This document shows positions 11,930 through 24,988 of a stretch of DNA of 64,000 nucleotides, one piece after another (positions within the stretch are counted from its first letter, which is position 1; every line of letters starts with the position of its first letter). This DNA is from a bacterium (lineage in GTDB: Bacteria; UBA10199; 2-02-FULL-44-16; JAAZCA01): contig CAXXGI010000001.1 of NCBI GenBank assembly GCA_963674695.2, positions 960,001 through 1,024,000 of the forward strand, written 5' to 3'. Under the pieces are notes generated by a model. The model saw only the letters and a list, made by a program, of their open reading frames with translations. It ran no database searches and was not told the origin of the DNA. The translations under genes and the position numbers were made by a program.

Positions 11930-13717
11930 ATGGGCAGAGTAACAGAGAGCTTTGGACGACGACAGTGCATCGAAAATATCCCTTCTGCCGATCCGGCAAG
12001 GCAGGACTGTTTTCGCATCGTCAAGGATTGCAAGCGCGCTGACGGAAATGGTGTGAGCACGTTCGTCTTCGAGAAGGAAGAAGGCCCGGCCATCATGCGG
12101 ACGATACAACCAGGCCTTCGCAAATGCATGCTCTTCGCACCCGAGGCGGCCAAAGAGGGGTACGTCCTCCAGGGGGCAAAGACCAGGCCCCAGAAACGAA
12201 AGCGACGGTCCAAGACGGCCAAACCCCGGAAACGAACGCGCGCAAAAAAGACAGCACGCGGCGGCAGGGGAAAGAGACTCATCCGATCGGTGCTGAGGGG
12301 GCTCGAGGACGGTCGCGTCGATATGGAGCGCGACTGGGAGCGCGTTCGCGATCACCGCTCCTTCAAGAAGAGTCCCAAGATAAGGGCGGACTACTTCGAG
12401 GCGGTGGCGAGATCGGACGCGGTCATCCCTGAGGATGTGAAAAAATCGATGTTCACGTGGTTCAAGAAATTTTTCGCCACACATCCAAACGAACGCCTCA
12501 CGATGTATGGTGACATGATCGTCCGCGCAGCCAGCATCGCCGACAGACAGAGACGGTATCCCGAAGCGATCATCATGGACATGGAGAAAGCGGCGAAGGT
12601 ATACGGAGAAACTCTTTTCGACTATTATAAAAACTATGCCAGGCCGCGACTGATCAATCCCAAGACAAACACATTTCACCCCCACGTTGTCGATCACCTC
12701 ATCCACTACGTCACGAGCGAATTGAATGAAGAGATCGAGCGAGACCTCTATGCCGTCGGAGATCCGCGGTTGAATGCATTCATCATACACATACAGCTTC
12801 AACCCCGTTATCTGCATGAAGATGCCGGAAAAGCGGGCGAGGAGCCCTATGATTATTACAAGGGACACGTTCGCGGGCTTCTCATCGATCCGACAACAAA
12901 CACGTTTCGTACCCATGTCGTCGATGCCCTCGTAGAATTCATCATGAAGGGGGGAGAGTTTGAACCCAGGATCAAAAGGGATCTCATCGCCGTCGGAGAT
13001 CCCCGATTGAACAGACTCATCGAATTAGATGATGCTGACGATAAAAAGATGCAGAAACTCCTTGCTGTGCTTGCAGACCCCTACACCCTTCTCAACGGAA
13101 CCCTGAGTGGAAGCAACTATCAAATCATTGTTAATCTCCGTAGCGATCTCGGATCTATGATACTGAGCAAGGCCCTCTGGCAAACCGCACACAGAATCCC
13201 AATGGCCCCGAAAATAGCGGGGGCAGGTTTGATGTTTCTCTCCCCACTCTCGGAATTTTTTATCCACAAGTGGGTCTATAAGCGGATCCATCAGAACACC
13301 GATCGGGAAAAGGTCATCGACCCCGCGCCCCGCCAGTGGAACCCGGATCTCGCCAAGGTGTGGCAGGGGGCCATCAGGGCATTAAAACCGTACGCACCCC
13401 CCGAGGGGGTCGAGCCCAGAACGCCGTTCGAGGTGCGCATAAAGGATGCCCTTGAACACCTCAATGAGGCGGACGAAGAGCTGTGTACGAGTTTTTTCTC
13501 CCGCCGGCTCGGAGACGACTATTATGAGGAACGCGAAGCGATGAACGCGTATCTGATCGGCGATCGACGCGATCTCGATCTCAAAACGCTCACGAGGAAG
13601 ATCGATCGGAAATCGAAATTCTGCCGCACGCTCGTCGAAATGCTCGAACACATCCCTCCCGAATTTTCCTATTACGACCGCGCACAAAAACTCCTGCGCG
13701 TCCTGTCCGAAGGGTAA
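11930..13717 (+). CDS. Hypothetical protein with internal ~45-aa duplication and Lys/Arg-rich patch
   Basis: 595-aa ORF, visibly lower GC; repeat LINPKTNTFHPHVVD...RDLYAVGDPRLN / LIDPTTNTFRTHVVD...RDLIAVGDPRLN. Confidence 0.75.
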   Translation: MGRVTESFGRRQCIENIPSADPARQDCFRIVKDCKRADGNGVSTFVFEKEEGPAIMRTIQPGLRKCMLFAPEAAKEGYVLQGAKTRPQKRKRRSKTAKPRKRTRAKKTARGGRGKRLIRSVLRGLEDGRVDMERDWERVRDHRSFKKSPKIRADYFEAVARSDAVIPEDVKKSMFTWFKKFFATHPNERLTMYGDMIVRAASIADRQRRYPEAIIMDMEKAAKVYGETLFDYYKNYARPRLINPKTNTFHPHVVDHLIHYVTSELNEEIERDLYAVGDPRLNAFIIHIQLQPRYLHEDAGKAGEEPYDYYKGHVRGLLIDPTTNTFRTHVVDALVEFIMKGGEFEPRIKRDLIAVGDPRLNRLIELDDADDKKMQKLLAVLADPYTLLNGTLSGSNYQIIVNLRSDLGSMILSKALWQTAHRIPMAPKIAGAGLMFLSPLSEFFIHKWVYKRIHQNTDREKVIDPAPRQWNPDLAKVWQGAIRALKPYAPPEGVEPRTPFEVRIKDALEHLNEADEELCTSFFSRRLGDDYYEEREAMNAYLIGDRRDLDLKTLTRKIDRKSKFCRTLVEMLEHIPPEFSYYDRAQKLLRVLSEG

Positions 13718-13781
13718 CTGGTGAGCTCTGCATGTCACACGTCTTTGCTCACGGTTTACAGTTCACGGTTCACAGTTCACC
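13713..13781. repeat. Heptamer array (GTTCACR) between convergent stop codons
   Basis: gctcacg gtttaca gttcacg gttcaca gttcacc, preceded by an inverted ggtaact ggtgagc. Confidence 0.75.
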
Positions 13782-13782
13782 A

Positions 13783-15264
13783 TTACCACGCCGAGAGCGA
13801 GAGGTAGGCGACGAGGTTCTGCGGGAGGATGCCGAAGAGGATGACAACCATCGCGGCGATGGCCAGGACCGCCACGAGCGGCGCGGGGATGGCCCGCACC
13901 GTTGCATCTTCATCGAAGGCGCCCATCGATGCGTGCGGCTCGCAGAAGACCATCGTCCATACGGGCTTGAGGAAATAAGCGATCGACAGGACCGATCCGA
14001 ATGCGCCGACGAGCACGAGTCCCACATCGCCGCCCCCGAGTGCGGTGAGAAAAAGATCATAGCGCGCCACGAAGCCGACGGTCGGCGGCAGGCCTGCAAG
14101 GGCCAAGAGGATGAGGGAGAAGGTTGCGGCCAATACGGGCCGACGAGAAGCCAGGCCTGCGAGCTGGGCACTGTCCACGCTGCCCGCACCCCCGATGGCA
14201 CTCACCGCGGCAAAGGCCGCCGCCATGAGCACGACCGTCACGAGCAGGAAGAGGATGAGCGCACGCGAAACACCCGAAGGATCGGCCGCGACCGACGGCA
14301 ACACGATCAGCGCCAGCCCCACCTGCGCAATCGCCGCGAAACCGAGCATGCGTTTGAGATTCGTCTGCGCCAACGCGCCGAGGTTGCCCACGACGATCGA
14401 GGCGACGGCGAGCGCTGTGAGCAGACCCCGCCAGAGCGGGCCGATGGCCGCAACCGCGAGCGCCACCCGCATGAAGGCGATGAGCCCCGCCGCCATCGCA
14501 CCGGTGGTGAGGATTACCGCTGCCGCCGGCGGCGCGCCCTCGATCGCATCGGGCATCCAGGCATGAAAGGCCGCGATCGCAATCCGGAGGGCGAAGGCGA
14601 CCGTCACCAATCCCACGCCGACCAGGACGAGCGAACGCATCGGAGAGGCCATGCATTCTGGAATGCGCTCGGCGATCGCCCCCAACTCCGTCGCGCCGGT
14701 GACGCCGAAGAGACAGGCCGCACCCATCGCCATGAAGGCGGTCGCCAGGAGGGAGGGGATGAAGAACTTCACCGCCGCCTCGTGCGCGCGCCCGCCGGCC
14801 CTTCCGCCGACGATCAACGCAACCGCGCCCGCCGCAATGATTTCGAAGGCGATGAGGATCACCACGAGATCGGCGGCGGCAACGAGGAGCGCCATGCCGA
14901 AGGCGATCACGCCCAACATGGCCGCGGGGACACTTCGTTCAACGCCCTCGCCGCGATCGGAGCAAGAGACGAGCAGCGCAAAGGCCGTCGCGATGATCGC
15001 GATCTGCCAGCCGACGATCGTGACGCGATCGATGAGGAACATTCCTTGTGATGCGCCGGAAGCGGATGCCCACATCTGCCAGGAGAGGAAAAAGCTGACA
15101 CCGAGACCTGCACTGAGCACGGCAATGTGTGCACGCCGGGAGGGGCGAACGAGTTCGATTCCACCGACGACGAGTGCGGTCACCGCCAAGACGATGAGCG
15201 GGAGTGCGCTTCGCACGAATGCGACCCCCCCCTGCCCACCCCACTGTACCACCGCTTCGAACAT
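13783..15264 (-). CDS. nuoN: NuoN-like antiporter subunit (divergent)
   Basis: EAAVKFF, FHAWMPDAIEGAP, GNLGALAQTNLKRML, LAGLPPTVGF; last gene of the A-H-J-K-L-M-N cluster; GGAGG SD. Confidence 0.85.
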   Translation of the reverse strand: MFEAVVQWGGQGGVAFVRSALPLIVLAVTALVVGGIELVRPSRRAHIAVLSAGLGVSFFLSWQMWASASGASQGMFLIDRVTIVGWQIAIIATAFALLVSCSDRGEGVERSVPAAMLGVIAFGMALLVAAADLVVILIAFEIIAAGAVALIVGGRAGGRAHEAAVKFFIPSLLATAFMAMGAACLFGVTGATELGAIAERIPECMASPMRSLVLVGVGLVTVAFALRIAIAAFHAWMPDAIEGAPPAAAVILTTGAMAAGLIAFMRVALAVAAIGPLWRGLLTALAVASIVVGNLGALAQTNLKRMLGFAAIAQVGLALIVLPSVAADPSGVSRALILFLLVTVVLMAAAFAAVSAIGGAGSVDSAQLAGLASRRPVLAATFSLILLALAGLPPTVGFVARYDLFLTALGGGDVGLVLVGAFGSVLSIAYFLKPVWTMVFCEPHASMGAFDEDATVRAIPAPLVAVLAIAAMVVILFGILPQNLVAYLSLSAW

Positions 15265-15272
15265 CGAACCTC

Positions 15273-15364
15273 CGTAACTCGTGACTCGTAACTCGTAACT
15301 CGTGACTCGTAACTCGTAACTCGCGAGCTGTTCACGGTTCACGGTTCACGGTTCACGGTTCACG
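15273..15364. repeat. Heptamer arrays (GTGAACC and GAGTTAC/GAGTCAC on the minus strand) spanning nuoM stop to nuoN RBS
   Basis: cgtaact/cgtgact x7 followed by gttcacg x5. Confidence 0.9.
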
Positions 15365-16855
15365 CTCCCCTGCGGGGACGATCATGCGCACGCGTGTCGC
15401 CAGCGTGCAGAAGGTCTTCGCCGAGGCAAGCGCCGGGCCGAGCCACATCCTCGGAGCGACGCCGACGCCGATGAGGATCGCCAGAGCGGGAATGAGCAGC
15501 ACATATTCGCGCAAACCGAGATCACGCCGATGGCGCGCCTCTTCATCGGACGATCCCGCGATCAATCGCAGAGCGATGCGTCCGACGGCGACCGGCACGA
15601 GCACAACGCCTGCGAGCGCGATGGCCGCCATGATCGTCTGCGTCTGAAAACTCCCGAGGAAGACGAGCCACTCGCCCGCGAAGACGGCAAACCCCGGAAC
15701 GCCCGCCGCCGCGACGAGCAGGACCAGCAGCACCACCGCCATGCGCGGAAGACGCGCACCGAGCTTCGCGCTTCCATCGAGCGCATCGGTCAAACCACGA
15801 CCGGAGAGCATGCCGGCCATACCCAGAAGTCCAACGCTGACGAGCCCCTGCGCGGCCAGCACCACCACCGCCCCCGCGCTCGCCTCCACATTGAGCGACG
15901 AAAACCCGAGCAGAACGATTCCCGTCTGGGCGACGGCCAGATACGCGACCGCACGCTTGAGCGTGGGCTGCACCGCAGCCATGAGCGCACCGGCGATGAT
16001 TCCGACGAGTGCGAGAATGCAGAGCACGGGTACGGCAACCGCGAGCGCCTCAGGGAACAGCGGCATCGCAAAGCGATAGAATCCGTAACAGCCCATCTTG
16101 AGCAGGCCCCCGACGATCAGGATCGCCCCGGCGGTGGGCGCCTCGGCCACCGCATCCGCGAGCCACATATGCAGGCCCACGACGGCAGCGGGGATGGCAA
16201 ACGCGACCGCCATGGCCAGGAAGAGCCAGCGCTGCACCGCGAAGGGGAAATCGATCGCGTACCAATCGAGCAGGTCGAACGAGCCCACCACGCCCGCGGC
16301 CGCGAGCATCGCCACGAGGAGCAGCATGCCGCCCGCCATCACGAAGAGCAGGAAGGTATGCGCCGCGCGCAGGCGCCCGGAGAGCCCGAAGCTGCCGACC
16401 AGGAAGAAGAGAGCGATGAGCACCACCTGCCAACTGACATAGAAGAGAAAGATGTCGAGCGCGGCGAAGACGCCCATGAACCCGGCTTCCGCCACGAACA
16501 GCCAGACATGAAATCCGCGCACGCGTTCATCGACTTCATTCCAGGAGACGAGCACGCCCATGGGCACGATGAGCGCGATCATCAGCATCAGGAGCATCGA
16601 GGCGCCATCGACGCCGACGTGATAGTGGATGCCGAAGGCGGGGATCCAGGAGGCAATCTCACCGAGTTCGAACTCGCGCGAACCCTCGATGCCAAACCAG
16701 GCCAGCGCACAGAGCGCGAGCGTGACGAGCGCCACGACGAGCCCCACCGCGCGCACCGCCCCCTTCCACCGCGCCGGCACGAGCAGGATGAGCGCCGCAC
16801 CGAGAAGCGGCAGAAAGATGATCGCGGTCAGCATGTGGGAAAGCAGCAGTTGCAT
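15353..16855 (-). CDS. nuoM: NuoM-like antiporter subunit (divergent)
   Basis: WIPAFGIHYHVGVDG, LHMWLADAVAEAPTAG, LLKMGCYGFYRF, GVPGFAVFAGEW. Confidence 0.87.
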   Translation of the reverse strand: MQLLLSHMLTAIIFLPLLGAALILLVPARWKGAVRAVGLVVALVTLALCALAWFGIEGSREFELGEIASWIPAFGIHYHVGVDGASMLLMLMIALIVPMGVLVSWNEVDERVRGFHVWLFVAEAGFMGVFAALDIFLFYVSWQVVLIALFFLVGSFGLSGRLRAAHTFLLFVMAGGMLLLVAMLAAAGVVGSFDLLDWYAIDFPFAVQRWLFLAMAVAFAIPAAVVGLHMWLADAVAEAPTAGAILIVGGLLKMGCYGFYRFAMPLFPEALAVAVPVLCILALVGIIAGALMAAVQPTLKRAVAYLAVAQTGIVLLGFSSLNVEASAGAVVVLAAQGLVSVGLLGMAGMLSGRGLTDALDGSAKLGARLPRMAVVLLVLLVAAAGVPGFAVFAGEWLVFLGSFQTQTIMAAIALAGVVLVPVAVGRIALRLIAGSSDEEARHRRDLGLREYVLLIPALAILIGVGVAPRMWLGPALASAKTFCTLATRVRMIVPAGEREP

Positions 16856-16861
16856 AATTTC

Positions 16862-16936
16862 CGTGACTCGTGACTCGTGACTCGTAACTCGTAACTCGTA
16901 ACTCGTGAACCGTAATTCGTGACTCGTGAACCGTAA
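16862..16936. repeat. Heptamer array (CGTGACT/CGTAACT) immediately upstream of nuoM start
   Basis: About 10 degenerate 7-8 bp units. Confidence 0.85.
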
Positions 16937-16945
16937 GCAATCCGG

Positions 16946-16980
16946 GACTGGATCCCCGACTACACCACTCGGGGATGACA
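16946..16980. repeat. Single REP-like palindrome
   Basis: GACTGGATCCCCGACTACACCACTCGGGGATGACA closely matches the reverse complement of the element starting near 45646. Confidence 0.7.
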
Positions 16981-17027
16981 TCGCGTAAAAACCAGCCTCC
17001 GTGATCCGTTCGATCGAAGATCGTGTC

Positions 17028-17100
17028 GCCGCGAGGGAACACGCGAGGCCATTTTTACAGCTTCATCGGAAAAATGGTCTCGCGTTTTCCCGGAAGGCGC
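17028..17100 (+). repeat. Hairpin family element, copy 1 (GCCGCGAGGGAA...TTCCCGGRAG)
   Basis: Stem GGGAACACGCGAGGCCATTTTT / AAAAATGGTCTCGCGTTTTCCC with loop ACAGCTTCATCGG; related copies at 36871 and 55454. Confidence 0.7.
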
Positions 17101-17143
17101 CAAGCAACTTCGCGCCGCGAGATGAAACTCCGGACTTTCCCCC

Positions 17144-19132
17144 TCACCCCAGCACCAACACCCCGACGACGACGACGGCGCCGATGAGGACATAGAGCAG
17201 ATACTGTCGCACGGCACCGGTCTGTGCAGCGGCCGCGACCGACGCGAAGAAACCGATCGCGCGCGCGCTGCCCCCGATGAGAATACCGGACAGAAACGTG
17301 CGGTCGATCAATTTCCACAAGATCACGCGCGCGACCCACCCGATGGGGCGCACCACGAGCGTCTGCGCTATTTCTTCGAGATACCAGCCCGAGCGCGCGC
17401 TGTGATAGAGCGGCGCGATGCGCCGGAGCAGACGCTCCGACCAATCGCGGCGCTGCGCATAGATGAGCCAACCCAGGATCGAACAGTGCACCGTCCAGAG
17501 GACGGCGATGACATAGAGGATGATCTGCACCGCGCGCGAGACATTATTCATGCCGCGGCTGACCTCGCCCGGCAGGAGTTCGCCCAGCCAGACGCCGAAC
17601 CGATCGGCGCCGCCCAGGATTTCGGGGACGGCGAGCACCCCGCCGAAGAGACAGGCGGTGGCCAGCAGCATCAGCGGCACCACCATCGCCACGGGCGATT
17701 CGGTCACGCGTTTGAAACGATCGAGTTCGATCTCGGTGCGACCGAAGAAGATCGCTCCCGCCACGCGAAAGATCGCAAAGGCGATCATCCCCATGGCCGC
17801 GAAGGTCATGATCCAGATGAGGACCTCGCCGCGCGCATAGGCATGGATGAGAATAGCGGAGAGCCCCGCAAATCCCGCCAGGGGAACCACGCCCGCGAGC
17901 GTAGCCGCAGCGATGACGAAGGTCCAGGCCGTGATCGGCATGCGCTGACCCAGGCCGCCCATGCCGAAGAGATCGCTCTCGCCCTGCAGGGCACGCATCG
18001 CACCGGCGGCGGCGAGCATGCAGAGCAGGAGTGCAAGCGCGACGACCACGAGATGATAGACGGCGGTGGTAAAGACCCCCAACCCCGCCGCGATGAGGAC
18101 GATGCCGAGCTCGGCGGCGGCGATCTGCGCAAGGATGCGTCGCACATCGGTCGACGCCAGCGCCGTGGCGCCCGCCGCGAGTGCGGTGATTCCGCCGAGC
18201 AACGCCATCGCCTTGAGGACACTCGGCGCGAGCGCGAAGATGCCATCCATGCGCGCAACGAGGGCGACCGCCGTAGCGCCGATGACCACCGCCTGCAGAA
18301 AGGCCGCGACCGGAACGGGCGAACGCGTCGTCGAGGGAAGCCAGAACAAAAACGGCACCTGTGCGGAACGCACCGCCACCGCCACGAGCAGCAGCAACGC
18401 GATGACGTGCGCAACCGGCAAAAACGCGGCCTGATACTGCACTACGTTTTCGAACGCGAGCGCGCCATCGCCGGGAGGAACATCGGCCGCCGCCATCGCC
18501 CCGACGATGAGAAAGCAGGCGGCCATGAGCGCCGCATCGCCAATGCGATCGACGACGAAGACCACGACTCCATGCTGCGCACCGTCGCGATCGGAGGAGA
18601 CGAATCCCGCCGTCAGCGATGCACACAACCCCACGCCCATCCATCCGACGATGAAGAACAGAAGGTTCTCCGCCAGCACCGCCATGAGCGCGAAGAAGAG
18701 CATCGCATGGATGAGAGAAGCGGCGCGCGCCAAGGAGCGCCGCCCCTCCATCGCGCCGGGCAGCGCCATCTGCGCAAAGAGGGCCGCGATGCTGAGCGTC
18801 AACCCGAGCGTGAGCGAGAGCTGATCGAGACGCAGACCCACGTCGACCACGAAATCCTTTGAGGCGATCCAGGTGAAGAGCGGTCCGGTGATCGCCGCAG
18901 CAGAGCCGACCTCGAATCCCATGAGCGTCCAAAACAGGACGATCATGATGGCGACGGTGAGCAGGGCACCGACGACGCCGATGAAGACGCTCAGCGGCCG
19001 AAATCGTTCATGCTCGGCGCGTGCGCCCGCCATCGCGATGAACGCGCAGCATGCCGACGACGTCAGCGGAACGGCCAGGACGCACCAGATGAGTGTCTGC
19101 AGTGAAACGATCTGATAGAGCGATTCGAGCAT
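17144..19132 (-). CDS. nuoL: NuoL-like antiporter subunit (divergent)
   Basis: GLRLDQLS, GWMGVGLC, DRIGD, RSAQVP..WLP, MGGLGQRMPIT, C-terminal QTGAVRQY. Confidence 0.87.
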   Translation of the reverse strand: MLESLYQIVSLQTLIWCVLAVPLTSSACCAFIAMAGARAEHERFRPLSVFIGVVGALLTVAIMIVLFWTLMGFEVGSAAAITGPLFTWIASKDFVVDVGLRLDQLSLTLGLTLSIAALFAQMALPGAMEGRRSLARAASLIHAMLFFALMAVLAENLLFFIVGWMGVGLCASLTAGFVSSDRDGAQHGVVVFVVDRIGDAALMAACFLIVGAMAAADVPPGDGALAFENVVQYQAAFLPVAHVIALLLLVAVAVRSAQVPFLFWLPSTTRSPVPVAAFLQAVVIGATAVALVARMDGIFALAPSVLKAMALLGGITALAAGATALASTDVRRILAQIAAAELGIVLIAAGLGVFTTAVYHLVVVALALLLCMLAAAGAMRALQGESDLFGMGGLGQRMPITAWTFVIAAATLAGVVPLAGFAGLSAILIHAYARGEVLIWIMTFAAMGMIAFAIFRVAGAIFFGRTEIELDRFKRVTESPVAMVVPLMLLATACLFGGVLAVPEILGGADRFGVWLGELLPGEVSRGMNNVSRAVQIILYVIAVLWTVHCSILGWLIYAQRRDWSERLLRRIAPLYHSARSGWYLEEIAQTLVVRPIGWVARVILWKLIDRTFLSGILIGGSARAIGFFASVAAAAQTGAVRQYLLYVLIGAVVVVGVLVLG

Positions 19133-19133
19133 G

Positions 19134-19439
19134 CTATCCCTTCAAGAGCGAAAGGTCATCCACATCGCGCCCGGCGTCTTTGCGCTCGAGCGCACGGGCG
19201 AGTCCAAAGCCGACGATCACCTGCAGGACCATGATGACGAAAAGGGTGAGCACGAGCACCCGGCCCGCCAACGCAAGATTCCAGCGGGAGAAGGTCACGA
19301 CCGCCACCACCGCCGCCAGGAGCATGAGCTGTGCCGACAAGAGGATCGCCACGAGATTTCGGCGTACGATCATGCCGAATGCCCCCAACACAAAGAGCAA
19401 CGCACTCGCGGCGAATGCCGGATGCAACGCGGGAATCAT
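19134..19439 (-). CDS. nuoK: NuoK-like subunit (divergent)
   Basis: LFVLGAFGMIVRRNLV...C-terminal DVDDLSLLKG; 101 aa, 3 TM; ATGA overlap with nuoJ. Confidence 0.85.
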   Translation of the reverse strand: MIPALHPAFAASALLFVLGAFGMIVRRNLVAILLSAQLMLLAAVVAVVTFSRWNLALAGRVLVLTLFVIMVLQVIVGFGLARALERKDAGRDVDDLSLLKG

Positions 19440-19933
19440 CGAACCTCCCGGGTCATGACGACGGCGCTGATGAGCGCAAAGAGCGCGGCCAGCACCGACA
19501 GTTCCATGAAGGCCGAATCCAAAAACGTCGCAGCCAGGAGCGGCATGCCCTGAAACCCGCGCGGAAGCGGCGGCATCATCCCGGCCGATGGCGGCACGAA
19601 TGCCACGAGGATGAGCACCCCCAGATACGCGACCGCGATCACTCCGAGGACCGTGCCGAATCGAACGGACCGGCGCGAACACCGCTGCGCCTCCTGCGCC
19701 GAACCGTTTAGCGCGGCCGCGAAGATGGTCGCCCCACCGATGGCGACGAGCATGCAGGCGAGTGCGGCCATGCCATCGGCGAGCAGCGCCACGAGCCCCG
19801 CCGCCGCGATGAACGTCACCGCAAACCAACGCGCCCCGTCACGCAGCTCGCTGCGTGTCACCGCGGCAAAGGCCGCAACGACGACGATGGTCGCACAGAC
19901 GACGACAGCGATCCCCTCGACGATCGACGGCAC
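19436..19933 (-). CDS. nuoJ: NuoJ-like subunit (divergent)
   Basis: 165 aa, 5 hydrophobic segments, FMELSVLAALFALISAVVM; position between nuoH and nuoK. Confidence 0.7.
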   Translation of the reverse strand: MPSIVEGIAVVVCATIVVVAAFAAVTRSELRDGARWFAVTFIAAAGLVALLADGMAALACMLVAIGGATIFAAALNGSAQEAQRCSRRSVRFGTVLGVIAVAYLGVLILVAFVPPSAGMMPPLPRGFQGMPLLAATFLDSAFMELSVLAALFALISAVVMTREVR

Positions 19934-19943
19934 ATCCCCTCCT

Positions 19944-20876
19944 TCACCACAAGGTCATGAGGGCCAAGGCAACCCCCGTGACGAACAGGTTGATACATGC
20001 CAACGGCAGAAACCATCGACGCATGCGCTGCCATCTCGCCGATTCGCGCTGCGCATCGAGCCGGCGTTCGATCCAACCGATCGCTGCGCACAACGCCGCC
20101 GTCTTGATGACGAAGACGACGAGCCCGGCCCCCATGCTCCACGTGCCGATGGCCCAATCGAGCAACTGATGTCCTGCCACCGGGGTGGCGATGAGATGGC
20201 GCAGCGCCGCGCCATCCAGCGAGGGAATCGCCCAGCCGCCCAGAAAGAGCGTCGCTCCCCACGCGCCCAACACCACCAGCAACATGCCGTCGGCCATGCG
20301 GCGAAAGAAGACGGCTTCGCAAGCCACGGCGCCGGGCACACTGAATGCCCACAGCTGGGCGGCCCCGAAGAGAAAGAGCACAAACCCGATCGGCTGCACC
20401 ACGATACCCCAGCGGAGGAGATCGGCGCCGCCGACATCGAGCATGGCATGCAACCGCATCGATCCGTGCACCAGGGCAACCGCACCGGCGACGAAGAGCA
20501 GCGCAGCCCCTGCGGAGATCAGGCGCAGACGCTTGGCGGGCATCGTCTCGCCATCATCGGCAAGCGTTTGTGCAAACGCACTCGCCAGGATGAGCGCCAA
20601 AATGATCAGCGCGCTGCTGGGCAGATCGGCCAGCGGCGAGATGAAGGCAATCGCACCAATTGTCGTCGTCGCCATGAACGGCACGAGCCCGAGCGCGGCC
20701 GCCGCCGTCAGAAAGGCGATGACGGGAGCCAGCAGCGAGAACGCGGGAAGATCGCCGCTCGCATGTGCGCCCGCATATCGCGCACGCGTCATCCGACAGA
20801 CAGACCAGACGAGTCCGCTCGACGCCACGAGCAGGACGCCAACGGAAACGATCGCTTGGATGAATGCAGCCAACAT
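19944..20876 (-). CDS. nuoH: NuoH-like subunit lacking quinone-site loops
   Basis: WGIVVQPIGFVLFLF, TLFLGGW, FVIKT, WFLPLACINLFVTG; GAGG SD. Confidence 0.75.
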   Translation of the reverse strand: MLAAFIQAIVSVGVLLVASSGLVWSVCRMTRARYAGAHASGDLPAFSLLAPVIAFLTAAAALGLVPFMATTTIGAIAFISPLADLPSSALIILALILASAFAQTLADDGETMPAKRLRLISAGAALLFVAGAVALVHGSMRLHAMLDVGGADLLRWGIVVQPIGFVLFLFGAAQLWAFSVPGAVACEAVFFRRMADGMLLVVLGAWGATLFLGGWAIPSLDGAALRHLIATPVAGHQLLDWAIGTWSMGAGLVVFVIKTAALCAAIGWIERRLDAQRESARWQRMRRWFLPLACINLFVTGVALALMTLW

Positions 20877-20891
20877 CTCACATCCTCAATT

Positions 20892-21094
20892 CCCTCCCCC
20901 TTGTAAGGGGAGGGTCAGACTGCTGACAAAGTCTTCTCGCGCTGTCATTCCCGCGGGGGTAAGCGGGAATCTCGATTATCACAGCACGTCGAGATCCCCG
21001 CTTTCGCGGGGATGACAACGGCAGGGTTTGTCATCAATCTGGGTTAGGGTGGGGTAGATCGGGGACTCATGATCTACCTCCCCCCATCCCCTCT
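20892..21094. mobile_element. Nested element: CCCTCCCC-type palindromic repeat interrupted by a 126-bp MITE carrying a REP doublet
   Basis: Insert 20916-21041 with TIRs CAGACTGCTGACAAA / CAGATTGATGACAAA (reverse complement) and GGT duplicated at 20913-20915 and 21042-21044. Confidence 0.75.
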
Positions 21095-21939
21095 TACTGA
21101 ATCCCCCACTTGTCGAGCGTGCCGGGACTGGAATCGTTGACGATGCTATAGGTGACGCCATCTTCCTGCTGGGCCTGTAGCTTCAGAAACTCCTGCGCCG
21201 CCGCCCGGCCCTCGAAGCTCTTCTTGTCCTTCATCAGATCGCGATAGGTCCGCAGCGCTTCCTGGCGATAGGGCTCCGCGCGGATGAGCAGCTCGTCGGG
21301 GGCAATCGCGCTGTTGAACAGCACCCAGCTCCACTTGCGGTGCACAAACCAGACGTCTTCGTTCACGCGCGCCCAGAGGAGTCTGCCCCGACGGTTCCAC
21401 TCCCCCCTCGGTCGCCGTTTGAGAAAGGCCTTGATGCGCGGCAGCACCTTGTCGGGATGTCCGCGCACCTCGCGCAGCAGGGTGTAGAAATCGGCCTCGG
21501 CCGCCCAGGAGCTCTTCGGGAAATCGGAGAGGAGGCGACGATACTGCACACCTGTGTAGGGGATGTAGGTGATGGCGTGCTCATAGGCGAACGATCCCGA
21601 CCCAAAGCGCGCGTTCAACCCCTGCGCCTCGGCCTGCATGCAGGCGGGCGTGCGCGGCGCGCCCTTGGCCCAATAGCACTTCTTCTCCGCGCGTTCGGTG
21701 AGGCCATCCTGCAGCCGATCGAGCAGGCGCCCACAGAGTGCGAGCGCCTCGGGCGTACGCTTTTTCTCCTTCGGGTGCGCCTGCGCCCAGCGACAGATGA
21801 GCTCGGCGGCTTGCTCCGGCTGCGTCTTCATCAGGGCCTTGCCCTGATCCAGCTCGTCGGCCCCCGCCGGCGCCACCCAGAGAAAGGTGCCCACGAGGAG
21901 GCAACACACGATGCGAGCGATATCAGTGATCCGTTTCAT
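21094..21939 (-). CDS. Secreted helical/TPR-like protein within the nuo-like operon
   Basis: Signal peptide ending AGA-D; YRRLLSDFPKSSWAAEA resembles BamD/YbgF-type TPR; start overlaps the nuoA-like 3' end. Confidence 0.75.
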   Translation of the reverse strand: MKRITDIARIVCCLLVGTFLWVAPAGADELDQGKALMKTQPEQAAELICRWAQAHPKEKKRTPEALALCGRLLDRLQDGLTERAEKKCYWAKGAPRTPACMQAEAQGLNARFGSGSFAYEHAITYIPYTGVQYRRLLSDFPKSSWAAEADFYTLLREVRGHPDKVLPRIKAFLKRRPRGEWNRRGRLLWARVNEDVWFVHRKWSWVLFNSAIAPDELLIRAEPYRQEALRTYRDLMKDKKSFEGRAAAQEFLKLQAQQEDGVTYSIVNDSSPGTLDKWGIQ

Positions 21940-22321
21940 CGATTCCCCCTTCTTCAAAGAGATCATCATCCGTGCGGACCGGACGGGCACCGGCCAGGGC
22001 CCGAGGGACACAGCCGATGGCGACGAGCAGCAGCGCGACAAGGCCCGCGATGAGGACGACGTGGAGCAGGGCCGCTATCGCGTTCTCCCCCTCGGACTGC
22101 AGGATGAGCCCCGAGGCCGCTGGAATGAGCGCCAGGGCGATGAGGCCCAGAAACGCCAAACCCGCAGCGCCCAGCACCGCCGCATCTGTGCGCGGCGAGG
22201 GCAGCAGACCCGGAGCGGGCGACGACGACGCCCGCCGACGGCGCATCCGCACAACAAACACCAGGGCGATGAGCGCCGAAATGACCATCCACACGAAATA
22301 CGCCAGACCGTTGGATTCCAT
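21923..22321 (-). CDS. NuoA-like 3-TM protein (highly divergent)
   Basis: About 132 aa, TM-loop-TM-TM topology with LALIP ending TM2; first gene of the cluster; lacks YECG and FDVE. Confidence 0.5.
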   Translation of the reverse strand: MESNGLAYFVWMVISALIALVFVVRMRRRRASSSPAPGLLPSPRTDAAVLGAAGLAFLGLIALALIPAASGLILQSEGENAIAALLHVVLIAGLVALLLVAIGCVPRALAGARPVRTDDDLFEEGGIDETDH

Positions 22322-22482
22322 AAAAGTGAAGTGTTGTTCAGAGGTTAACCGTCGCGGCAGTGTACCAGGCACGGCCCGCCATGACAACCCCAACCCGAGC
22401 GGCGGCGCCGACCTCAACCCCCATTTTCATTGAACTGCCGGTGCGTTTCGGCTACGCCGTCTGAACACCATAAGGGGGTTTT

Positions 22483-24834
22483 TTGTTTCGAACGCGCCAC
22501 ACCATAATCGTCCTGGGTTTTGCCCTCTTCGCGATGTTCTTCGGGGCAGGAAATCTCATCTTCCCCCCGGCGCTCGGGCGCCTCTTCGGCGATGGGTTCT
22601 CCTGGGCGGCGATCGGCTTTTTGCTCACGGGCGTGGGCCTCCCGCTCATGGGCGTGATGGCGGTCGCCAAGGCCGAGGGCGGCATCGACCGGATCGCGGC
22701 ACGCCTCGACCCTCGAATCGCCAAGCTCCTCTCCATCATCGTCATGCTCGCGATCGGCCCGTTTCTGGCCATCCCGCGCACAGCGGCCACCACCTTTGAG
22801 CTCGGCATCGCGCCCAACCTCCCCTGGCTGGGACTCGCCCCTTTCTCCGTCATCTACTTCGTCGTGGTCCTCTTCTTCGCCCTCAATCCGCTGTCGGTGG
22901 TCGATCGGATCGGAAAGATCCTCACCCCGCTGCTCTTGGCCGCACTCCTGGCCCTGATCTTCAAGGGACTGGCCCACCCCATCGCCGCACCGATCGCGGG
23001 CGCCACACCCCACCCCTTCGGAACCGGGCTCATCGAGGGGTATCAGACGATGGACCTGATGGGCGCGGTGATCTTCGGCATCATCATCTTGAACGAACTG
23101 CGCAGTAAAGGGGTCTTCGAAAAAAGCCTGCAGATGAAGAGCATCGTGCGCGCGGGGCTCATCTCGGCAGGAGGACTGGCCGTCGTCTACGGGGGGCTGG
23201 TCTACCTCGGCGCCACCACCAGCGCCACCATCGGCGAAATGTCGCGCACCCAGCTGCTGCTCTTCATCGCCCATGAACTCTTCGGCCGCGGCGGCGGCAT
23301 CGTCCTGGGTCTGGCCGTCTCGATGGCCTGCCTGACCACCGCCATCGCGCTCACCGTCGTCTGCGGGGAATACTTCAACAAGCTCTCCTTCGGGCGACTG
23401 AGCTACCGCACCGTCTGTCTCGTCGTAGCGGGCTTGAGTCTCGTCTTCGCCAACTTCGGTCTCGAGCAGATCATTGCGCTGGCCGTGCCGCCGTTGGTGG
23501 CGCTCTATCCCGTCGTGATGGTCCTGGTGATCCTCTCGCTCCTGAGCCCGCGCCTTTCCAACCGCAACCTCTGGCGCGGCGCGGTGGCGGGCGCCTTCGC
23601 CGCGGGGCTTATCAAGGCGATCCACATCGCCCAGATCGGCAACGAGCACGTCGATGCGCTCTTCGATCTGATCCCCTTGACCGACCACGGCCTGGGTTGG
23701 GTCCTGCCGACCGTCGCCCTCGGGTTTGCCGGGTCGCTCATCCGCGAACGCGAGGACGAGCATTTTCGCGTGCTGGTCCTCTGCCCCAGCCAGCTCGAAA
23801 CCCGCGTGGCGATCTATGACGACACCATGCCGGTCTTCGAGTCCCGCGTCCCCCACAACCTGGACCGAGCGATGGATACCTCTGAACGCATTGCGGAGCT
23901 GAACTCGCTCAAGGAACACCTGCGCGATCGCCTCTCGCAGGAACACATCGATCTGTCGACCGTGAATGCCGTGGTCGCGCGCGGAGGATTCGTGCATCCG
24001 CTTCCGGGTGGCGTCTACCGCATCGCCGAACCGATGGTGCGCGATCTGGCCGAACACGCCTGGCGCCACCACCCCTCGAACTGGGGGGCGGCTATCGCCT
24101 TCGAGATTGCCAACGAAAACGATATCGACGCCTATATCGTCGATCCGGTCGTGGTCGACGAGATGGACGAGATCGCGCACCTGCTCGGGCTGCCCGACAT
24201 GCGGCGCTCCTCCATCTTTCACGCCTCCAGCCAGAAGCAAACCGCACGTCGCATCGCCAAGAACCTCTGGAAGAGCTACGACCGCATCAACGTCATCATC
24301 GCCCACCTGGGCGAGGGGACTTCCGTCGGTGCCCACCGCAAGGGGCGCGTGGTCGATGTGAACAACGCCCTCGACGGCGATGGGCCGTTTTCGATGCTCA
24401 ACGCGGGAAGCCTCCCCACCGTCGATGTCGTGCGCCTCTGTTTCGAAGAGGGCGCCAGCCAAGAAGCGGTCCTCGCCCGTATCCGCAGTCATGGGGGACT
24501 GGCCGCCCACTTGGGCACGGCCGATGCGGAGGTGATCTGTGCGCGCGTGGCCTCGGGCGATACCAAGGCCTGCGAAGCGATCGAAGCCATGGCCTATCAG
24601 ACGGCGAAATGGATCGGCGCGATGAGCATCCCGCTCGATGGCCGTGTGGATGGCATCGGCATCACGGGCGACCTCGCCGCCTGCCCGGAGCTCACCCGCG
24701 CTATCCGCAAACGCGTACGTCACCTCGCCCCTGTCTTCATCTTTCCGAACGACTCGGAGACACACGCACTCGTCGGAGGCGTGCTGCGCGCCCTGCGCGG
24801 CGAAGAGGAAGTGCGGGAGTATGAACCGCTGTAA
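22483..24834 (+). CDS. BrnQ branched-chain amino acid carrier fused to a butyrate kinase-like domain
   Basis: N-terminal GFALFAMFFGAGNLIFPP, IGPFLAIPRTA, GYQTMD, ACLTTA; C-terminal VDPVVVDEM, AHLGEGTSVGAHRKGRVVDVNNALDGDGPFS; one frame; TTG start uncertain. Confidence 0.9.
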   Translation: MFRTRHTIIVLGFALFAMFFGAGNLIFPPALGRLFGDGFSWAAIGFLLTGVGLPLMGVMAVAKAEGGIDRIAARLDPRIAKLLSIIVMLAIGPFLAIPRTAATTFELGIAPNLPWLGLAPFSVIYFVVVLFFALNPLSVVDRIGKILTPLLLAALLALIFKGLAHPIAAPIAGATPHPFGTGLIEGYQTMDLMGAVIFGIIILNELRSKGVFEKSLQMKSIVRAGLISAGGLAVVYGGLVYLGATTSATIGEMSRTQLLLFIAHELFGRGGGIVLGLAVSMACLTTAIALTVVCGEYFNKLSFGRLSYRTVCLVVAGLSLVFANFGLEQIIALAVPPLVALYPVVMVLVILSLLSPRLSNRNLWRGAVAGAFAAGLIKAIHIAQIGNEHVDALFDLIPLTDHGLGWVLPTVALGFAGSLIREREDEHFRVLVLCPSQLETRVAIYDDTMPVFESRVPHNLDRAMDTSERIAELNSLKEHLRDRLSQEHIDLSTVNAVVARGGFVHPLPGGVYRIAEPMVRDLAEHAWRHHPSNWGAAIAFEIANENDIDAYIVDPVVVDEMDEIAHLLGLPDMRRSSIFHASSQKQTARRIAKNLWKSYDRINVIIAHLGEGTSVGAHRKGRVVDVNNALDGDGPFSMLNAGSLPTVDVVRLCFEEGASQEAVLARIRSHGGLAAHLGTADAEVICARVASGDTKACEAIEAMAYQTAKWIGAMSIPLDGRVDGIGITGDLAACPELTRAIRKRVRHLAPVFIFPNDSETHALVGGVLRALRGEEEVREYEPL

Positions 24835-24836
24835 AC

Positions 24837-24988
24837 AGTTCGATGGTCCGACGGTTCGTCGGTTCGTCGGTTACAGCGTTTCAATCCTGTGATAGAGCGT
24901 CAAATTCGATCGAACCATCGAACCATCGAACCATCGAACCATCGAACCATCGAACCATCGAACCATCGAACCATCGAACCATCGAACC
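24837..24988. repeat. Octamer array ATCGAACC x10 (24909-24988) with degenerate inverted arm
   Basis: Ten perfect units ending 1 bp before ATG 24990; upstream agttcgat ggtccgac ggttcgtc ggttcgtc. Confidence 0.95.

Follow-up and report, generated by a model that had tools for sequence, protein, structure and literature searches.

A solitary complex I membrane arm with most of its ion-path residues replaced in an uncultured bacterial lineage

The gene cluster

We have analyzed a 64,000-nucleotide stretch of bacterial DNA (contig CAXXGI010000001.1 of assembly GCA_963674695.2, positions 960,001 to 1,024,000; hereafter the window), in which positions 13783 to 22321 carry eight minus-strand open reading frames (ORFs) that together resemble the membrane arm of respiratory complex I. 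They are designated A', X, H', J', K', L', M' and N' in the order of transcription, and no NuoE, NuoF or NuoG is found within the cluster.

21923-22321, minus strand: A', 132 amino acids (aa), about three predicted transmembrane (TM) helices, in the nuoA position; homology to NuoA not demonstrable
21094-21939, minus strand: X, 281 aa, predicted to be secreted, all-helical and TPR-like; lineage-specific, lying between nuoB and nuoC in relatives
19944-20876, minus strand: H', 310 aa, derived from NuoH; without the loop motifs of TM1-2 and TM5-6, and with one of eight key residues kept
19436-19933, minus strand: J', NuoJ-derived, 165 aa, about five TM helices
19134-19439, minus strand: K', NuoK, 101 aa, with E36Q and E72Q
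17144-19132, minus strand: L', NuoL-derived, 662 aa, aligning over its full length with relatives; keeps one of eight key residues
15353-16855, minus strand: M', 500 aa when counted from the likely start, derived from NuoM; keeps two of seven key residues (K265, E407)
13783-15264, minus strand: N', 493 aa when counted from the likely start, derived from NuoN; keeps two of six key residues (E133, K158)

The likely starts were picked from the translations and the ribosome-binding sites. Shine-Dalgarno sites precede X (a good one), H', J' (AAGGAGG), K' and N' (GGAGG), with a weaker one before L' and none ahead of A'.

An original prediction made from the sequence had described seven colinear Nuo-like ORFs here. 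All eight frames are in place, and four of the proteins are firmly identified. N', M' and L' match PF00361 (E = 1e-43, 8e-40 and 9e-34, respectively), and their best NCBIfam matches are NuoN, NuoM and NuoL, that of M' (TIGR01972) scoring 365 bits and lying above the cut-off. K' matches PF00420 (E = 2e-16) and, above the cut-off, the NuoK NCBIfam. H' and J' are marginal. H' matches PF00146 in its C-terminus only, with 31.2 bits against a cut-off of 27, and J' matches the NuoJ NCBIfam with E = 5e-4; phmmer links both to the NuoH and NuoJ of relatives (17-36 bits for J'), with which they align helix by helix. The order H-J-K-L-M-N, with its family matches, is conserved as in complex I. It is for A' that the description did not hold. 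Comparison with a profile of nine NuoA sequences gave an hhalign probability of 1.3%, there was no Pfam or NCBIfam match, and the PYECG motif that is invariant in the NuoA of nine relatives is absent. A' is 32% identical to an ORF at the same position in a related genome (G008, below). It is NuoA-like solely by its position upstream of X, corresponding to the A-B-X order of relatives, and by its three or so predicted TM helices.

Most of the ion-path residues are replaced

The cluster proteins were aligned using MAFFT with the Nuo proteins of E. coli K-12, against whose nuo sequence the residue numbering was verified, and with 27-38 rows from relatives per subunit. Of 31 key positions 25 are replaced, mostly by uncharged residues, and six are retained, distributed as one of eight in L, two of seven in M, two of six in N, neither of the two in K and one of eight in H. 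L' has E144M, K229R, H254Q, H338V, K342L, K399L and D400S, and keeps H334, D178 and D303. M' has E144Q, K234P, H248V, H322Q and H348Q, keeping K265 and E407, and N' has K217R, K247M, H305Q and K395R, keeping E133 and K158. In K' both glutamates are changed (E36Q and E72Q), and J' has Y59A. Every substitution that had been listed by eye for L, M, N, K and J was correct in these alignments. In addition H' has lost seven of its eight key residues, and the TM1-2 and TM5-6 loops that belong to the quinone cavity are missing.

Outside the degraded clusters described below, all key positions are intact in 28 of 30 rows for L, 27 of 29 for M, 27 of 28 for N, 27 of 27 for K and 23 of 24 for H, and the exceptions are single, mostly conservative changes. 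The loss of J Y59 is not diagnostic, as A or S is also found there in five of six family relatives whose residues are otherwise intact. The overall share of charged residues is unchanged, at 0.09-0.16 in the window proteins and 0.09-0.17 in E. coli, and the de-charging is confined to the intramembrane functional sites.

The repeated appearance of glutamine and arginine had been taken as a sign of selection. Selection for these particular residues is not supported, since other degraded lineages carry different residues at the same sites; M E144, for instance, is variously replaced across the degraded lineages as Q/N/S/A/Q/I/T/A. The only recurrent replacements are K E36Q (four of six rows) and N K395R (all five rows that have a residue there). 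The changes E to Q, H to Q and K to R each need one base change.

Proteins of the PF00361 family are the ion-translocating units of Mrp antiporters as well as of complex I, and the cluster might therefore still encode an ion transporter or channel with reduced or different residues, such as an Mrp-like cation/proton antiporter or a leak, driven by a gradient from Rnf and the ATPase. Surviving sites are compatible with this, including E133, K158 and the arginines at 217 and 395 in N', K265 and E407 in M', and D178, D303 and H334 in L'. The consistency of N K395R would also fit, as would the changes of Glu and His to Gln, which preserve polarity and hydration. Against this, the TM5 glutamate and TM7 lysine are gone in both L' and M', as are both NuoK glutamates, and the central His/Lys axis is broken in all three antiporter-like subunits. 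In the E. coli mutagenesis literature, one such change is enough to abolish activity or to cripple it. Moreover, in six of the seven rows from other degraded lineages M keeps none of the seven key sites. The Mrp (Mnh/Pha) antiporter does resemble the cluster in having stand-alone PF00361 subunits and a NuoK-like subunit without a redox module. However, L', M' and N' score far higher for Nuo than for Mrp families, no family match to MrpB, E, F or G was found among the eight cluster proteins, and Mrp keeps the Glu/Lys/His axis that the window cluster has lost. The residue pattern argues against Mrp-type ion translocation, and we regard a surviving transport function as improbable.

The genome encodes neither a peripheral arm nor another membrane arm

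The genome (G000) comprises 3.03 Mb in three contigs, with a marker-gene completeness of 100%; like all the genomes in the comparison, it is an uncultured assembly. Its PF00361 genes number just three and all belong to the cluster, and H' is its only PF00146 protein. There are no matches to PF00346 (NuoD) in the genome, and no NuoC homologue either. A search for a separate canonical nuo operon was thus negative; the membrane arm stands alone, with no peripheral arm. Among the roles suggested for the cluster had been that of a regulator or decoy exchanging with a canonical membrane arm, in favor of which we find nothing beyond the resemblance itself. With no other PF00361, PF00146 or PF00346 gene in a complete genome there is no arm with which to exchange, and this role is refuted here unless the assembly misses a replicon; we put its chances at practically nil. 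It had also been considered that this might be the sole arm, pairing with nuoB-I products encoded elsewhere. It is indeed the sole arm, but there is no nuoB-I set elsewhere.

The single PF01058 (NuoB-like) gene encodes the small subunit of a cytoplasmic, soluble-type NiFe hydrogenase on another contig (G000:C3:1031000-1035300; L057 6048-10224), in an operon whose four genes code for the Fer4, FAD/NAD, small and large subunits. About 10 kb separates this operon from the Rnf genes. Three PF01512 (NuoF/RnfC-type) genes are found elsewhere in the genome, one of them beside Rnf genes. The arm might in principle have been re-partnered, docking some other soluble redox module encoded elsewhere, for instance a NuoF-like protein or the group-3 NiFe hydrogenase, in the manner of 11-subunit complex I relatives with alternative electron donors. 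The NuoB-like hydrogenase subunit and the three PF01512 genes would provide candidates. Operons lacking NuoEFG are well known, and partial complex I operons recruit other modules, as described by Spero et al. (2015; PMC4453560). Yet docking requires the interface of NuoH with NuoB and NuoD and the quinone cavity, and H' has lost those loops along with seven of its eight key residues. NuoD and NuoC homologues are missing, the hydrogenase genes are arranged as for a soluble enzyme and on a different contig, and coupling would be pointless without a proton axis. We consider re-partnering very improbable indeed.

No matches were found in the genome to heme-copper (COX1) or cytochrome bd oxidases, the two terminal-oxidase families searched for; it carries Rnf genes and one UbiA-family gene. 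Heme-copper oxidase is likewise present in none of 17 further genomes from the family and two sister families, and most other families of the class possess it. Its absence from the family and the two nearest families fits a relaxed need for respiratory function. With no Q-module, no second arm and neither of the searched oxidase families, the arm cannot be a redox-driven pump.

Degraded arms have arisen repeatedly in the order

We drew gene maps of 47 loci from relatives. The standard operon in the lineage is nuoA-nuoB-X-nuoC-nuoD-nuoE-nuoF-nuoG-nuoH-nuoJ-nuoK-nuoL-nuoM-nuoN, sometimes split in two pieces, and the canonical operons of relatives retain the charges. The window cluster is the lineage's own complex I operon minus nuoB and nuoC-G. 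L' has orthologues in all 41 genomes sampled from the family, order and class.

The order is sampled by 22 species representatives, seven of which carry degraded arms (G000, G002, G007, G008, G009, G012 and G014). The gene orders in the six other than the window's own are as follows:

G007 and G012: B-C-D-H-J-K-L-M-N, without E-F-G
G008: A'-X-D'-H'-J'-K-L-M-N
G002: A'-X-H'-J'-K'-L'-M'-N', the same layout as the window
G009: X-J-K-L-M-N
G014: X-L-M-N'

All seven keep L and M, and have either N or, where N would be, a 13-TM ORF. A complex-I-type NuoD is missing in G000, G002 and G014, and also in G011, but the G011 genome is only 78% complete. In G009 the sole PF00346 match is partial, in a frame of about 490 aa, and such frames also occur in genomes with a full complex I. 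The L protein of G002 is only 23% identical to L' of the window and still has 16 predicted TM helices.

In the tree of X the orphan state requires at least three changes, with G009 lying beside a canonical genus and G014 with another family. Most degraded rows fall together in the L tree, but their branches there are long and flagged as unreliable by the tool. A single origin of all the degraded arms was considered and rejected on these grounds. Horizontal acquisition was also rejected. The third-position GC content (GC3) of the cluster is 0.75-0.83, similar to that of the neighboring genes, and the L' and X trees both place the window inside its own family.

Several features of the relatives' loci may be recorded here. 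In the canonical operons of the lineage (L016, L051-L060) the interval from nuoH to nuoJ showed no nuoI, no search having been made for NuoI elsewhere; the NuoH of these loci is about 420 aa with an insertion of about 90 aa before the last helix, and their NuoG is short, at about 470 aa. In a class-level relative (G022; L049 1-4203 and 4751-15226) there is a second, de-charged K-L-M-N set directly 3' of a canonical operon, which is of the 11-subunit type A-B-C-D-H-I-J-K-L-M-N. In G007 (L028 4060-4533) NuoB keeps its Cys-containing motifs at the E. coli and canonical positions, while M of the same species keeps none of seven key sites; the Q-module may in such cases outlive the pump.

Protein X

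Throughout the class X lies within the nuo operon. It has 94 homologues, up to 64% identical and none of them named, only one of which carries precomputed Pfam families, all of TPR type. X itself has no Pfam match, and neither X nor A' matched any Pfam family at E <= 0.01 above the cut-off. The protein has a signal peptide with an AxA-type site, no lipobox cysteine of the kind expected for BamD, and two invariant cysteines. Its AlphaFold2 model is all-helical, with a pLDDT of 89.9, and a Foldseek comparison with the PDB gave weak matches to TPR folds of the BamD/YbgF type (best E = 3.5e-3, TM-scores of 0.24-0.28). Matches in the Atlas were mostly unnamed clusters, with YfiO/TPR_6 at rank 20-25 and scores of 0.86-0.88. 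The end branch of X is 0.46 where the median of the X tree is 0.48, and it is not accelerated.

X is our only lead to a partner of the arm. Its gene belongs to the operon, its evolutionary rate is normal, and in five of the seven degraded species it lies beside L-M-N; it is therefore a candidate client of a membrane platform. A prediction of the complex of L' with X (residues 28-281) returned a score of 0.00, which is no answer and counts neither way. That X is in fact a partner of the arm seems to us rather doubtful.

The genes are intact and their membrane cores remain apolar

L, M, N, K, J and H of the window are 44, 45, 38, 38, 26 and 28% identical, respectively, to canonical members of the family, against 69, 61, 54, 68, 52 and 57% among those members. 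In the L tree the end branch of L' is 0.79, compared with a median of 0.31. We simulated this excess divergence as random substitution, starting from the nearest canonical genes with a simple substitution model that ignores indels and is conservative on that point. In 200 runs the six genes acquired a mean of 32.4 stop codons, with a minimum of 21; none is observed. In columns belonging to the apolar core, charged residues number 1 of 382 in L', 3 of 318 in M' and none of 273 in N', whereas 19.0, 12.4 and 11.6 were obtained in the simulation, giving totals of 4 seen and 43 from neutral substitution. The other degraded lineages are likewise low in core charge (8 of 371 for L of G002).

The cluster is therefore, as had been proposed, not a set of freely decaying pseudogenes. 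The genes appear to be under selection for full-length, membrane-embedded proteins and not for the old ion path, which the missing stops and core charges show indirectly. The pattern is one of lost constraint together with selection against buried charges, and is not one of selection for glutamine. It had been suggested that the charges were removed in order to abolish pumping; they were probably lost instead after the redox module had become dispensable.

A possible structural role for the arm

We conclude that the cluster very probably encodes a membrane arm that is redox-dead, non-canonical and maintained by selection. On balance, and with some reservation, we think it probable that the products would form a non-pumping, fold-constrained membrane complex, perhaps serving as a platform for secreted X. 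In the sequence of events that we envisage, the redox module would have become dispensable in the lineage, after which the charges of the proton path would have been lost. The products would then form a 'pseudo-transporter' with a core of L', M' and N', as suggested by retention of these subunits in every degraded lineage of the order. Its role would be structural, most likely that of a membrane platform, and it may serve the secreted, TPR-like X. The assignment as a scaffold or platform is tentative, and we would put its chances a little short of even.

A number of observations weigh against this interpretation. Of the deeply invariant columns of L' 61 of 125 are kept, compared with 57 of 83 columns that are conserved in the family only (Fisher p = 0.006). 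No new conserved site is visible, and the replacements vary by lineage. The closest relative of L' among 5.8 billion proteins is 46% identical, and its cluster is a singleton. Among the long contig pieces listed from three DNA runs of one study, none had a variant in the coding parts, differences being confined to the repeat-bearing spacers; no RNA run was listed as containing the stretch, which counts neither way. G009 lacks H', G014 lacks H, J and K, and the L end branches of the other lineages range from 0.27 to 2.4, all of which is readable as ongoing decay. G007 and G012 yielded no X; should X be a binding partner of the arm, arms lacking it are possible all the same. The degraded group is partly defined by the trait that is counted in it and its members are kin and not independent, and the simulation used a simple substitution model.

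Much of this could be accommodated if the cluster were a relic in slow decay, functionless and destined for eventual deletion. Its intactness would then reflect no more than the harm done by truncated polytopic membrane proteins, or the shortness of the time elapsed. The end branches, from about 2.5-fold the median for L' of the window to more than 7-fold for G002, would be expected of a relic, as would the preferential loss of old functional sites in L', the disappearance, piece by piece, of H, J, K and A from G009 and G014, the absence of a conserved new motif, and the repeat insertions in the spacers that break the tight gene coupling seen in relatives. A relic should nonetheless have accumulated the stops and core charges that were simulated. 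L-M-N has been lost in no species of the order, though four of them have lost every complex-I NuoD and the genomes are small (1.1-3.6 Mb). The state has arisen at least three times and persists in G002 at the low identity noted above, and the Shine-Dalgarno sites are kept. We judge a decaying relic to be unlikely, and return to the fold-constrained complex in comparing the cluster with systems already known.

L', M', N' and K' are orthologous to the lineage's NuoL, NuoM, NuoN and NuoK, full-length and in the same order as in the complex I membrane arm, and H' and J' are recognizable, with similar TM counts. The cluster differs from complex I in having neither Q-module nor N-module, in the loss of the proton axis and the NuoH loops, and in the extra secreted X. 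It is a descendant of complex I that does not qualify as a complex I enzyme. The 11-subunit relatives without NuoEFG (cyanobacterial NDH-1, Fpo and the Campylobacter type) similarly have a partial nuo operon from which one module has been lost, and G007 and G012 resemble that stage. Those enzymes retain NuoB, C, D and I, the quinone site and all the pumping residues, whereas the window cluster also lacks the Q-module and is de-charged. The CO2-hydration modules DAB (DabA-DabB) and CupA-NdhD3/F3 combine antiporter-like subunits with an adjacent, non-redox soluble partner, and provide a precedent for exaptation. Their partners are cytoplasmic and carbonic-anhydrase-like, and depend on the proton path of the subunit; X by contrast is secreted and TPR-like, and no DabA- or CupA-like partner adjoins the cluster. 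Pseudoenzymes, dead homologues retained in structural or regulatory roles, provide a further parallel in having a fold under selection from which the catalytic residues have been lost, repeatedly, but here it is a whole seven-subunit membrane transporter assembly that is concerned.

A search of full-text literature found no description of a de-charged Nuo arm lacking its peripheral arm, nor of a pseudoenzyme-like case, although supplements might list such clusters. PMC12142623 presents a normal 11-subunit cluster only, and a preprint (bioRxiv 10.1101/2025.03.13.643058) defines 'Nuo-Partial' clusters but gives no description of this case.

A bolder possibility, which we regard as somewhat unlikely, is that L'-M'-N' has been exapted at least three times in this anaerobic, uncultured, deltaproteobacteria-like order, giving a new non-electrogenic membrane machine with X on its periplasmic face, for example an envelope-organizing or docking platform. 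If the exaptation reading is true, a 'pseudo-transporter' complex of respiratory-enzyme descent would here be seen for the first time. The complex I membrane arm is usually discussed only as a proton pump that the peripheral arm drives; in the present case the scaffold of seven subunits has been kept, repeatedly and across long divergence, with driver and proton path both gone. If the proteins are made, a pump-independent role would be worth seeking in ordinary complex I, such as membrane organization or the docking of periplasmic partners, and the sequences would constitute a natural mutagenesis series that separates residues needed for fold and assembly from those needed for ion transfer. 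X, which is also present in the nuo operon of canonical relatives, would then be a candidate for an accessory subunit of a bacterial complex I on the periplasmic side, or for a factor in its assembly. Should the proteins not be made, the clusters would record, unusually well preserved, successive stages by which a respiratory complex was lost as anaerobic life was taken up.

Promoter, spacers and neighboring genes

The remaining features of the cluster are a possible promoter and three spacers that contain repeats:

22359-22387, minus strand: promoter candidate, sigma-70-like TTGTCA-17-TACACT with a TG extension, 38 nucleotides (nt) upstream of the A' start
20877-21093: X-H' spacer, 217 nt, at the site of nuoC-G in relatives; contains a palindromic REP-like repeat
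16856-17143: L'-M' spacer; a tandem array of heptamers, (ACGAGTY)n, stands immediately 5' of the M' start
15265-15352: M'-N' spacer, with heptamer tandem arrays

The promoter candidate is the sole sigma-70-like match in positions 13300-22700, where shuffled sequences contain 1.4 on average, so it is a weak hint only. The palindromic REP-like element sits exactly where nuoC-G are missing. The repeat in this spacer has 266 blastn-short matches genome-wide, peaking at about 226 per position in mid-spacer, and has a contig depth of 370-810 compared with 7-25 alongside.

Arrays of (ACGAGTY)n and related heptamers are found at 15273-15364, 16862-16936 and 13749-13780, directly 5' of the M' and N' start codons and 3' of N'. 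Across the genome 48 exact heptamer arrays with at least four copies were counted, the commonest unit being ACGAGTC (14 arrays). They recall the short tandemly repeated heptamers carried by some cyanobacteria.

Elsewhere in the window, a perfect tandem array of ten octamers, (ATCGAACC)x10, lies at 24909-24988 within the 5' end of a 1433-aa ORF for a BadF/BcrA-type activase. It would encode repeated IEPSNHRT if the activase start were real, and the true start of this ORF is probably downstream of the array. At 22483-24834 on the plus strand, a single 783-aa ORF joins a branched-chain amino-acid transporter (PF05525) to a domain of the acetate/butyrate-kinase family (PF00871).

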